NCBI GenBank assembly: GCA_048882505.1
Contig: JBHLRO010000004.1
Span: 110,193-142,192 of the forward strand
Direction: 5' to 3'
Length of the DNA: 32,000 bases
From: Candidatus Thorarchaeota archaeon
GTDB lineage: Archaea; Asgardarchaeota; Heimdallarchaeia; Hodarchaeales; Hodarchaeaceae
A program made the translations under genes and the position numbers. Positions 12,726 to 15,134 of the stretch are shown one piece after another. The notes under the pieces were generated by a model, which ran no database searches, was not told where the DNA came from, and saw only the letters and a program-made list of their open reading frames with translations. Each line of letters starts with the position of its first letter. Position 1 is the stretch's first letter.

Positions 12726-15134
12726 TTGGGTCATCTAATGCCCACGAAATTTATCCCCCGTGATTCGGAAGAATTCGAGGCTCTATTGGTCGATCGGCCT
12801 TCTAGGATAATAATCCAAGGTTCAATGACAGAAATTATGTCCCTAATTGAAAAATCGGGAACGAAACACCCCCGATTAATCTTCTATGATTTTTCAAATT
12901 GGTATAATCGCGTTAATATTCAAATTCGACCTCAATTTGAAGGCCTTATCTCAGTTGAGCAATTATCAAGCAAAATAAATATGATTCCACCCACCGATAA
13001 TGATTTTTGGGTGGAAAAGGCTTCTTTCTTAACTACATGTTTGGGAGTCCTTGCTGAGGATGGGTTCCTTGCTGTGAAGGTTAATGGCTCAATTAAAGCA
13101 CCAACAAAGGTCTTATTGGACAAGATTTTCGGGTATGGTCATTTGGTTAATGAAATCATCATAGATTCACCTTTTATGGTAACCTATGCTCAGGATCTGA
13201 GAAATTTCGAACGAACAGATTACATCCTTCTTTACAGCAAGGGAACAAACCCTCGAGTGAATCCCATCTGGAATGAAAAGACCAGTGGGGGGTATTGGCA
13301 TAGTTTTGTGTCAAAAGGTCAAGGTAAACCAAAAACATTCATTTTTCAGAACAAAAAGGTAGTTCTTTCGCCTCCTTTGGGTACGCATTGGAAGTTAAAG
13401 CAAGATCAAATCTTGAAATTATGTAGAAAAGGCAAGATCAGACTAAACTCGAAAGGAAATCCAGAATATTGGGTGCCAGAGAAAAAAGGACAGATCGTTG
13501 ACACGAATTGGTTAGACATCTCTAGCGTTGAGGAAAAATTAGCGTTATCTCAGAAATTGAGCAAACGGCTTTTATCTCTGCTCTTAAAGGAAAAGGATCT
13601 GTTCTTTAATTGTACGCCAGAAGAAGGTTCCTCATTTATTGTTGCAGAAGAACTCAGTTTAGACTGGATGGGAATTGAAGAAAATCCCCAAAATGTACAG
13701 TCTCTTGTAGAGAGAATAATGACCAAAATGCCTAGTTCCCCTATAAACATTGTGATTGATTCTCGATATCCATTAAGCGAAGTTGGGCCTTTTCGCCACC
13801 CCGTAACAGGTGTTGAATTGGATTTTCTGCCAAATTTTCTTCCCATTGCTGGAACCATCCCTAAACAGAAAAAGAAAGATGAAATTTTCTTATTATCTGA
13901 AACATTTGACCGAATAGATACGGATTGGAGAAATTTGCTTTATCACGGGGATTGTGGAGCCGTTTTGGATCACCTTAGCAATGAAATATTACGTGAAAAG
14001 ATTAAGTTGATTTATATTGATCCTCCATTCTTCACTGGCATTCACGAGAATATAGTAATTCCATTGGGCCAAGGTAATTCACAGTTTGAGACTCTTGCCT
14101 ATCATAACGCTTTGGAGGAAGAAAATCCCATTCAAGCTTTTGTATCTTGGTTTTCTCGACGAATAAGATTGATGTTCGACCTTCTTCGGCAGGATGGGAT
14201 ACTTTTTGTTAGGCTTGATTATCATATAGGCCATTATGCACGGCTTATCCTTGATAGGATCTTTGGATCAGGGGCATTCATTGGGGAATTTTTGATTCGC
14301 CGAATGAAAAAGAATCTCTCCAAAAAACAGGCCTGGGGCCAAAAGCACCTTATTAATCATAGTGATTTCCTGCTTGTATACCGTAAAAGTGCAAAAGGTA
14401 CAATTAAGTTGCATTCCGTTAATAAAAGGAGAAGAAGGGGCCAGGATTACGCTGAACGGGAATACTCGAATGACAATATCTGGCTGGACATCGCAGGGTA
14501 TCAAAAAGCCAAAAAAACACTATATCCAACAGAAAACTCAGAATCGCTTTTGAATAGGGTACTTAAGGCTGCTTCCCAAAAGGACGATATTATTGCTGAT
14601 TTCTTTTGTGGATCAGGCACCTCTATGGCTGTAGCAGAAAAACTAGGTAGACGGTGGATCGGTGCTGACTTGAGTTCGCATTCTATTCAACAGGTAAGAC
14701 GGAGAATGCTTGGCATACCAAACCTCAAGCCATTTCAGCTATATCTTTCATCTGATATAAATCCTGAAAAAACGTTGAATACCCAGAAAAATGGGTCTCA
14801 TGAGGTTCGCATCGTTACCTTCCTCCGTAAAGGGGTTTTAAAACTTCAGCTGGCCGATTTTAAACCAAAAAATACGGGAAATATTATACAAGGACAGAAA
14901 TATCACGATCTAATCGACTCATGGGCGATCGACTGGGATTATAAAAGAGGTATATTCCACTTGGATTGGGTGTCCTACAGAAGTTTACGGGGGAGAAGGG
15001 TGATCGCACCTATAGCATCCGTAGCAACGCACAGGTACTCTCATCAGAAATCTTACATGATCAAGGTAAAAATCGTGGATATTTTTGCTCGAAGTTATTC
15101 ACTTACACGAGAGATCAAAGTTGGAGGATCCTAA
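12726..15134 (+). CDS. Beta-class N6-adenine/N4-cytosine DNA methyltransferase, Type III Mod-like, with an N-terminal degenerate MTase duplicate
   Basis: KIKLIYIDPPF (DPPF 14019-14030) precedes DFFCGSGTS (14598-14618), the beta-class order. C-terminal Mod-type domain IDSWAIDWDY...IKVKIVDIF. Start is TTG 12726 (abuts the previous stop) or ATG 12738. Confidence 0.88.
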   Translation: MGHLMPTKFIPRDSEEFEALLVDRPSRIIIQGSMTEIMSLIEKSGTKHPRLIFYDFSNWYNRVNIQIRPQFEGLISVEQLSSKINMIPPTDNDFWVEKASFLTTCLGVLAEDGFLAVKVNGSIKAPTKVLLDKIFGYGHLVNEIIIDSPFMVTYAQDLRNFERTDYILLYSKGTNPRVNPIWNEKTSGGYWHSFVSKGQGKPKTFIFQNKKVVLSPPLGTHWKLKQDQILKLCRKGKIRLNSKGNPEYWVPEKKGQIVDTNWLDISSVEEKLALSQKLSKRLLSLLLKEKDLFFNCTPEEGSSFIVAEELSLDWMGIEENPQNVQSLVERIMTKMPSSPINIVIDSRYPLSEVGPFRHPVTGVELDFLPNFLPIAGTIPKQKKKDEIFLLSETFDRIDTDWRNLLYHGDCGAVLDHLSNEILREKIKLIYIDPPFFTGIHENIVIPLGQGNSQFETLAYHNALEEENPIQAFVSWFSRRIRLMFDLLRQDGILFVRLDYHIGHYARLILDRIFGSGAFIGEFLIRRMKKNLSKKQAWGQKHLINHSDFLLVYRKSAKGTIKLHSVNKRRRRGQDYAEREYSNDNIWLDIAGYQKAKKTLYPTENSESLLNRVLKAASQKDDIIADFFCGSGTSMAVAEKLGRRWIGADLSSHSIQQVRRRMLGIPNLKPFQLYLSSDINPEKTLNTQKNGSHEVRIVTFLRKGVLKLQLADFKPKNTGNIIQGQKYHDLIDSWAIDWDYKRGIFHLDWVSYRSLRGRRVIAPIASVATHRYSHQKSYMIKVKIVDIFARSYSLTREIKVGGS

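Follow-up and report, generated by a model that had tools for sequence, protein, structure and literature searches.

The stretch of DNA considered here (the window) is 32,000 nucleotides long and was taken from the Candidatus Thorarchaeota archaeon assembly GCA_048882505.1 (contig JBHLRO010000004.1, positions 110,193-142,192). It carries on its forward strand a gene for a protein of 802 amino acids (aa), in which two homologous methyltransferase (MTase) domains are joined in a single chain, the first having lost its catalytic motifs and the second having kept them. The protein is best explained, with a probability of roughly 70%, as an orphan beta-class DNA N6-adenine methyltransferase, without the helicase/nuclease (Res) partner of a Type III restriction system, that forms a single-chain pseudo-heterodimer of a dead Mod half bearing an insert at the position of the target recognition domain (TRD) and a live Mod half devoid of it. 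The bounds of the gene in the original prediction were exact, with 802 aa counted from a TTG codon; an identical database entry has 798 aa and begins at the ATG at 12738. The features of the gene are as follows, in window positions.

12726-15134, + strand: whole open reading frame, fused pseudo-dimeric beta-class methyltransferase of 802 aa; TTG start, alternative ATG at 12738
12789-13745, + strand: N half (residues 22-340), degenerate PF01555 domain, ModA-like, homologous to stand-alone dead Mods (Pfam, hhalign, fold, tree)
12879-12905, + strand: motif IV position of the N half, IFYDFSNWY, with no DPPY-type motif ([DNS]PP[YFW] in 0/39 homologues)
13263-13499, + strand: TRD-position insert of the N half (residues ~180-258), SGGYWH...PPxGTHWK...GNPEYW (mean pairwise identity 0.70; aligns to 6k0w residues ~283-345)
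13590-13637, + strand: motif I position of the N half, glycine-rich loop for S-adenosylmethionine (SAM) lost (FxGxG in 1/39)
13746-13910, + strand: linker (residues 341-395), partly disordered in the model (identity 0.16)
13911-14741, + strand: C half (residues 396-672), intact PF01555 catalytic domain without the insert, ModB-like (Pfam E 5e-35; fold; relative P0259 49% identical)
14019-14030, + strand: motif IV DPPF, D432-F435 (D432, P433 and P434 invariant, F435 nearly invariant; 38/39)
14385-14471, + strand: short basic segment at the position of the N insert (residues 554-582; alignment, identity 0.46)
14523-14543, + strand: YPTENSE, variant motif of the subfamily (39/39 C halves, 0/39 N halves)
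14604-14618, + strand: motif I FCGSG, SAM-binding loop (39/39; F627, G629 and S630 invariant)
14742-15131, + strand: C-terminal beta-sandwich tail, PKD/Ig-like (residues 673-802; all-beta in the model; homologous tails)

The Pfam family PF01555 (N6_N4_Mtase) matches the protein twice. The match on the C half covers residues 426-656 at E 5e-35; that on the N half (residues 96-326) is weak but over the cut-off (28.9 bits against 26.7) and proceeds without the first 30 profile positions, where the DPPY motif sits. The generic family PF13649 (Methyltransf_25) stays below its threshold, at 16-17 bits against a cut-off of 27. BLASTP of residues 1-400 against residues 400-802 returned two co-linear segments (259-346 with 583-676 at E 1e-6, and 108-146 with 486-524 at E 5e-6), and an hhalign comparison of 38 N halves with 39 C halves aligned N 22-337 with C 398-672 over 255 columns, at a probability of 99.7 and E 6.8e-26, with a single large gap that corresponds to the N-half insert (residues about 180-258). 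The segment-by-segment correspondence of the two halves, which had been read by eye, is thus real and far above chance.

The state of the motifs was recorded in 39 full-length homologues. Among the C halves, [DNS]PP[YFW] is present in 38/39, and FxGxG and P[TS]E[NK] in all 39, while the corresponding counts among the N halves are 0, 1 and 0, with the motif IV position reading IF(L/Y)D(L/F)S. The C half carries its motifs in the beta-class order (DPPF 432-435, the TRD position, YPTENSE 600-606, FCGSG 627-631) and the N half keeps the positions in the same order, the motifs themselves being gone. The loss of both the DPPY-type and the SAM-binding motifs from the N copy and their retention in the C copy therefore extend to the whole set, but for a single N half with FxGxG and a single C half without [DNS]PP[YFW]. 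Three basal members (P0045, P0048 and P0055) retain vestiges such as DLPV(F/Y) in the N half, and P0045 and P0048 also FFCQFG; such remnants are what progressive decay from an active ancestor would leave. From DPPF and FxGxG we infer that the C half would carry out SAM-dependent methyl transfer to N6 of adenine in DNA. Beta-class enzymes usually carry a (H/Y)PTQKP-type motif where this subfamily has YPTENSE, and the whole subfamily, Res-linked members included, reads YPTEN(S/A)E or YPTEKSE at that position. An arrangement of two active domains, of the FokI type or as a multi-MTase fusion, was considered and rejected, the catalytic motifs of the N copy being missing in all 39 homologues; such fusions do exist, P0147 having three intact PF01555 domains.

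The two copies also differ at the TRD position. The segment from DYILLYSK to NWLDI in the N copy has about 88 aa, against about 30 aa from DFLLVYRK to IWLDI in the C copy, in agreement with the ~87 and ~28 first estimated. A profile of the N half matches the Helicobacter pylori Mod (6k0w) at E 2.9e-12 over chain residues 78-345, insert included, with SGGYW...PPxGTHWKxxQ...GxIR of the insert aligned to PNGAW...PPVGMFWRFSQ...GRIC of the H. pylori Mod. By this alignment the insert has its homologue in the conserved Type III Mod region that follows motif VIII. The TRD of EcoP15I (aa 263-384) is likewise positioned after motif VIII (PMC4490356).

Since the orthologues are only 40-47% identical, synonymous sites are saturated, and the protein identity of each region was used as the measure of constraint. 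Mean pairwise identity over the 39 homologues is 0.36 in the N core before the insert, 0.70 in the insert and 0.31 in the N core after it; it is 0.16 in the linker, 0.57 and 0.67 in the two parts of the C core, 0.46 in the short C-half segment (554-582) and 0.30 in the tail. By this measure no other part of the protein is as well conserved as the insert. Both halves have numerous invariant columns; of the 31 in the N half, nearly all fall within the insert. No full-length homologue lacks the N half, and the decay of this half is not random (70% identity in the insert against 16% in the linker); the dead copy is clearly under selection, focused on the insert.

The full-length AlphaFold2 (AF2) model has a predicted local distance difference test score (pLDDT) of 84.5 and a predicted template-modelling score (pTM) of 0.86, with the linker disordered at residues 351-382 (pLDDT <50). 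In the predicted model, the C half matches 6k0w_B best (Z 26.4, root-mean-square deviation (rmsd) 3.1 Å, 268 residues aligned), followed by 4zcf_A (Z 25.1) and 7dsu_B (Z 24.9). The N half, modelled alone at pLDDT 87.8, matches M.MboIIA (1g60_B) with Z 21.7 and rmsd 3.0 Å over 213 of 228 residues, CcrM and the H. pylori Mod with Z 21.0 each and the EcoP15I Mod with Z 20.6, Type III Mods being tied with M.MboIIA and CcrM at Z 20.5-21.7. The N half thus models as a beta-class MTase fold, with Z 20.6-21.7 to four such enzymes. METTL3 and MTA1 are found at Z 12-13 with either half.

The two halves were also modelled as separate chains of a complex, in three runs and with 3 controls. The complex reached an interface score (ipSAE) of 0.82, against 0.00 for the best of the three controls; the mark for this score is reached by 58/80 solved complexes and by 2/110 mismatched pairs. 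At least 90% of the contacts agree across the three runs, and the partner pLDDT is at least 81. Mapped through the N/C alignment, in which residue n of the N half is here equivalent to residue n-17 of the C fragment, the contacts prove reciprocal. C108-N125 pairs with itself, C108-N128 has its mirror image in C111-N125, and the counterpart of C147/148-N259/260 is C189-N162. Such reciprocity implies a pseudo-two-fold axis, as in an interface derived from a homodimer. The halves are thus predicted to pack as a pseudo-two-fold dimer through equivalent helix and strand elements on either side, a geometry drawn from the pTM of 0.86 and the contacts listed for the complex. In that complex the insert core (about 186-255) takes no part in the interface and points outward, as expected of a TRD lobe.

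A search with the N-half profile over 1.84 billion representatives retrieved 43 proteins below 1e-30. Besides the fused form, of which 39 full-length homologues were collected, the relatives comprise four others. Single-copy active enzymes of ~620-650 aa (P0146, P0066, P0069) have DPPF, YPTEN(S/A)E, FxGxG, the insert, a middle domain and a PKD-like tail, and small active enzymes of ~335 aa (P0140, P0143, P0144) also carry the insert. Of the stand-alone dead proteins with the insert, some measure ~580-600 aa and have the middle domain and tail (P0126, P0131, P0133, P0134), and others measure ~270-370 aa. The fourth form comprises stand-alone live proteins without the insert (P0259, P0262, P0063, P0079, P0061). 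The middle domain is a stretch of ~150 aa between the MTase domain and the PKD-like tail (residues ~350-500 of P0146, P0259 and P0126) with no Pfam match; it is found in both stand-alone Mod types, is missing from the fused proteins, and might contact Res.

The stand-alone dead and live forms occur as neighbours. At locus L004 (1892-8036), dead P0126 is followed by an 858-aa ResIII helicase with an endonuclease domain and then by live, insert-less P0259; at L011 (7001-13276), on a 178-kb contig rich in Arf/Roc GTPases, dead P0133, an 867-aa Res and live, insert-less P0262 follow one another as three translationally coupled genes. Dead P0131 is followed by Res as far as the contig end at L005 and L006. 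At L013 (8751-10231), dead P0134 precedes a 208-aa ResIII fragment and an IS66 transposase gene; the Res gene has apparently been cut short, and the locus looks like a heteromeric-Mod system in decay. Two further loci have short dead proteins directly before live, insert-less ones, with no Res in the few kb of sequence around either pair: P0260 (371 aa) before P0079 at L007 (1059-3903), and P0261 (346 aa) before P0061 at L008 (1477-4205). The genes of the latter pair overlap by four bases, and a two-gene form of this type therefore plausibly stands one step before the fusion. The window protein shares 49% identity with P0259 over residues 395-673 and 38% over the tail, and 41% with P0126 over residues 102-338, values as high as those between fused orthologues. 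The combination of a dead and a live copy, for which homologues were to be sought, is thus found both fused and in unfused pairs (L004, L011, L007, L008).

A maximum-likelihood tree (LG+C20) of 35 domains, rooted on the small active enzymes, places all dead domains, whether N halves of fused proteins or stand-alone, in one clade (100/100); the live insert-less domains, again from fused proteins (C halves) as well as from stand-alone ones, all fall in another (100/99). The two clades are sisters, weakly (81/63), and the single-copy active enzymes with the insert branch just outside them. The dead lineage has evolved faster, with end branches of 0.8-2.0 against 0.2-0.6. This topology implies that one duplication gave rise to a dead lineage that kept the insert and a live lineage that lost it. 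Both halves of one fused protein, P0058 (778 aa), group with the Lokiarchaeial split pair P0260/P0079 of the L007 type, apart from the core fused clade, and fusion (or fission) has therefore occurred at least twice. The history would then have run from a single-copy active Mod bearing the insert, through a duplication that yielded a dead reader and a live writer around Res in Type III-like operons, to adjacent gene pairs without Res and finally to fusion, at least twice.

The closest functional model is provided by the Type III enzymes. Type III Mods head the sequence matches both for the whole protein and for the N-half profile, and also the fold matches of the C half; the protein shares with EcoP15I Mod2 (4ZCF) and with the H. 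pylori (6K0W) and Mbo45V (7DSU) Mods the beta-class motif order and an insert at the TRD position. In the EcoP15I Mod2 dimer, the TRD is too far from the active site of its own subunit; ModA reads the DNA and ModB methylates it (PMC4490356). According to a review, beta-class enzymes are likely to be active only as dimers (PMC7544214). The labour split of EcoP15I, this likely dependence on dimers and the complementary losses in the two copies together lead us to propose that the N half positions the DNA and the C half methylates it. The N half, derived from a dead Mod paralogue, would bind and position DNA through its insert. The C half, derived from a live paralogue that lost the insert, would bind SAM and methylate a flipped adenine with DPPF. 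The pseudo-two-fold packing would reproduce the obligate beta-class dimer, where an active site is served by the TRD of the partner protomer. Each copy would, after duplication, have lost the function idle in its role, namely catalysis in the ModA-like copy and the insert in the ModB-like copy. The idea from which the analysis started, a division of labour fixed in one polypeptide, thus gains computational support from the fold of the N half, the conserved insert, the predicted pseudo-dimer and the unfused dead/live pairs.

Several points weigh against this assignment of roles. The live half carries YPTENSE where the canonical motif is of the TQKP type; YPTENSE may correspond to motif X of EcoP15I, whose Asn416 and Lys418 touch the target adenine (PMC4490356). 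The high interface score may reflect likeness to solved beta-class homodimers. The catalytic protomer of CcrM itself reads the target strand (PMC6787082), and the C half could therefore do the base reading here. The insert is nearly invariant and is common to active single-copy relatives (P0146, P0066, P0140/143/144); for this reason it possibly does not set specificity, and could serve as a scaffold for DNA binding without being the only element that reads bases.

These points lead to the principal rival explanation, in which the protein does form a pseudo-dimer, but its dead N half has no more than a structural or allosteric part in it (comparable to METTL14 or DNMT3L) or serves as a non-specific clamp on the DNA backbone, the bases being read by loops of the C half as in CcrM, perhaps with the PKD-like tail. 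That the insert hardly varies and also occurs in active single-copy relatives speaks to some degree for this explanation, as the insert is shared across different restriction-modification (R-M) loci, where specificity should differ; CcrM exemplifies such a split of labour (PMC6787082), and at 46% the C half's own short basic segment (554-582) is conserved as well. However, the live lineage has lost precisely the insert that is most constrained in the dead lineage, as the EcoP15I model predicts, and the insert core points away from the predicted N/C interface. We regard a purely supporting N half as unlikely.

The distribution of the fused gene was examined in 400 genomes of the phylum with the N-half profile (E<=1e-30), with only 5 candidates scored per genome, so that absences are soft. 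The profile matches 18 of the 21 other species of the same genus (19/22 with the own genome), one of two in the sister genus and three genomes beyond; among the 31 genomes of the neighbouring family of the same class there is no match at five candidates per genome. Submitters label the nearest homologues Heimdallarchaeota, Hodarchaeales or Promethearchaeota. An Asgard-wide family, as these database labels suggested, was rejected, since the genome search puts the family mainly in one genus, although at five candidates per genome orthologues elsewhere could be missed. Of the 18 matches among the other 21 species of this genus, 17 are intact frames of ~800 aa (791-837 aa) and one is a frame truncated by the contig end. 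The gene order around it, namely DUF6884, a gene of 336-357 aa, a major facilitator superfamily (MFS) transporter in some, the MTase, YjbQ, an unknown gene, TFIIB, HflX and an S8 peptidase, is kept in four genomes (the window, L001, L002 and L009). Between the window and L001 or L002, identity is 75% for TFIIB, 53-54% for HflX and 44-46% for the MTase. Neither the window nor the syntenic loci L001, L002 and L009 have a helicase or nuclease (Res) gene close to the MTase, and the L011 Res, used as a query, found no homologue in the own genome (94.6% complete), a result that is not proof of absence. PADLOC labels the MTase as a generic Type II/III MTase and assigns it to no defence system. As far as these sequences indicate, the fused gene has the profile of a vertically inherited orphan methylase and not of a mobile restriction system, and since a single Asgard genus of the Heimdall/Hodarchaeales type has inherited it vertically, its role is more likely to be housekeeping or epigenetic than restriction.

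The same surroundings bear on whether the protein is a sequence-specific DNA adenine methylase at all. It might instead methylate RNA, act non-specifically like M.EcoGII or transfer no methyl group; the variant YPTENSE motif, the missing cognate nuclease and the housekeeping neighbours (TFIIB and HflX among them) speak for this, and some beta-class enzymes act on RNA or on single-stranded DNA (PMC7544214). Such a reading is nevertheless improbable in view of the retention of DPPF in 38/39 and of FxGxG in 39/39 C halves, the occurrence of the closest relatives in Type III-like operons with Res, and the fold comparison, where DNA MTases come out best with Z 20-26 and both METTL3 and the ciliate DNA MTase MTA1 reach only about 12-13. 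Least probable is that the gene is what is left of a decaying Type III restriction system, with no selected function after the loss of Res, for although neither the window nor the query of the own genome with the L011 Res yields Res, the frame is intact in most species of the genus, synteny is conserved even though TFIIB is only 75% identical between genomes, and both halves have many invariant columns.

The protein also differs from the systems it resembles. The protomers of EcoP15I Mod2 are identical and both competent, and become asymmetric only on DNA, whereas here the asymmetry is encoded in one chain and there is no Res; the insert is of ~79 aa, against a TRD of 122 aa in EcoP15I. Unlike the MTase domains of a Type III Mod homodimer, the two domains here differ, one dead and one live, and are covalently joined, and unlike in Type III R-M systems there is no adjacent cognate Res, although the relatives at L004 and L011 do have one. 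With CcrM (6PBD) the protein shares the fold (Z 21-23) and the status of an orphan, vertically inherited beta-class enzyme; CcrM is an asymmetric dimer with an extra C-terminal DNA-binding domain, but a homodimer, whose catalytic protomer reads the target strand. The NCBIfam CcrM model scores 60.1 bits against a cut-off of 830, so that the protein is not a CcrM equivalog. In its proposed way of working it is like EcoP15I Mod2 and by family it is a Mod-like member of PF01555, while the window gene is not a Type III system (no Res), not an MT-A70 protein and not a CcrM orthologue.

The eukaryotic pairs METTL3-METTL14 and MTA1-MTA9 likewise combine an active subunit with a paralogue of eroded motif IV that aids substrate binding, and their fold is related (Z 12-13); they are, however, MT-A70 proteins in separate chains, in contrast to a single PF01555 chain. 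Pfam finds no MT-A70 match in the window protein, and a survey saw no sign of an Asgard-archaeal origin for eukaryotic MT-A70 (PMC12695648). The parallel with METTL3/METTL14 drawn in the original prediction stands as a functional analogy and falls as a family relationship, the resemblance to the MT-A70 heterodimers being convergent. PRMT7/PRMT9 (PMC10908127) and RsmC (PMC1934991) are also products of duplication within a chain, in which the dead domain is required as the pseudo-dimer partner of the live one, but they belong to unrelated families, act on protein or ribosomal RNA and have no TRD that is divided between their two copies. Another example is found in Dam-like proteins of fungi, which have an inactive second domain (PMC4738411). 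Pseudo-heterodimeric methyltransferases as such are thus already known (METTL3/14, MTA1/9, PRMT7/9, RsmC). A literature search, with most subscription journals outside its reach, found no publication on dead/live Mod pairs, on Type III operons with two such mod genes, on a heteromeric Mod or on a fused pseudo-dimeric DNA methylase, and Type III-like operons with two different mod genes flanking res appear to be undescribed.

The proposal, based on EcoP15I, that beta-class enzymes have to dimerise rests on few structures, and the dead/live family looks like a natural experiment on it. Catalysis has been erased in one copy and the TRD-position insert in the other, and the pair has been retained in three forms (around Res, adjacent and fused), the outcome predicted by the division-of-labour model. 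The solution of an active enzyme with a pseudoenzyme, seen in METTL3/14, MTA1/9 and PRMT7, would thus also have arisen in prokaryotic DNA methylases, here near Heimdall/Hodarchaeales as judged by database labels, and the family offers a tractable single-chain system for separating reading from writing. A bolder possibility, which we hold only tentatively and think unlikely in its entirety, is that the dead-reader/live-writer Mod pair represents an undescribed Type III class with an obligately heteromeric MTase, whose fused descendant without Res has been domesticated in Hodarchaeales-type Asgards as a chromosomal epigenetic writer of N6-methyladenine (m6A), maybe together with DpdC-like (DUF6884) and TGT/DpdA-like genes as a composite DNA-modification module. 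If true, this would be an independently evolved archaeal parallel to the eukaryotic METTL3/14 and MTA1/9.

The two genes in question lie directly upstream of the MTase gene.

11234-11713, + strand: DUF6884/YaaA-like gene with weak PADLOC likeness to DpdC, tightly coupled, a conserved neighbour in L001, L002 and L009
11715-12725, + strand: gene of 336 aa whose stop abuts the MTase start, possibly a divergent TGT/DpdA-like protein (weak evidence)

The sequence matches of the 336-aa protein to TGT are all at E 0.2-1 (Pfam TGT at E 0.21, TGT in the Protein Data Bank at E ~0.4), and its Atlas feature score is 0.95 to a cluster with DpdA in 29% of its members. The likeness to TGT/DpdA is thus a lead rather than a classification, and the two genes may be a modification pair of the 7-deazaguanine type.

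The C-terminal tail of the MTase (residues 673-802) has no Pfam match of its own even at E 10. The homologous tail of P0066 matches PF18911 at E 3e-6, and comparison with the tails of ~650-aa PF01555 proteins gives an Atlas template-modelling (TM) score of 0.81. The putative name PKD/Ig-like is taken solely from such homologous tails, which are also present in single-copy and stand-alone relatives.

The fused gene is single-copy in its own genome, beside about 25 other PF01555 loci. The 35 PF01555 matches of this genome, in about 25 loci, constitute an unusually large set of beta-class methylase genes, and several of these loci have stops inside the match or split matches, including C15:82675-83493, C9:21179-22087 and C4:188701-189597. 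The window is archaeal in content, encoding TFIIB, an HTH_10 regulator and an HflX-type GTPase, and a giant open frame of >2,880 aa occupies positions 3-8657, running off its 5' end.

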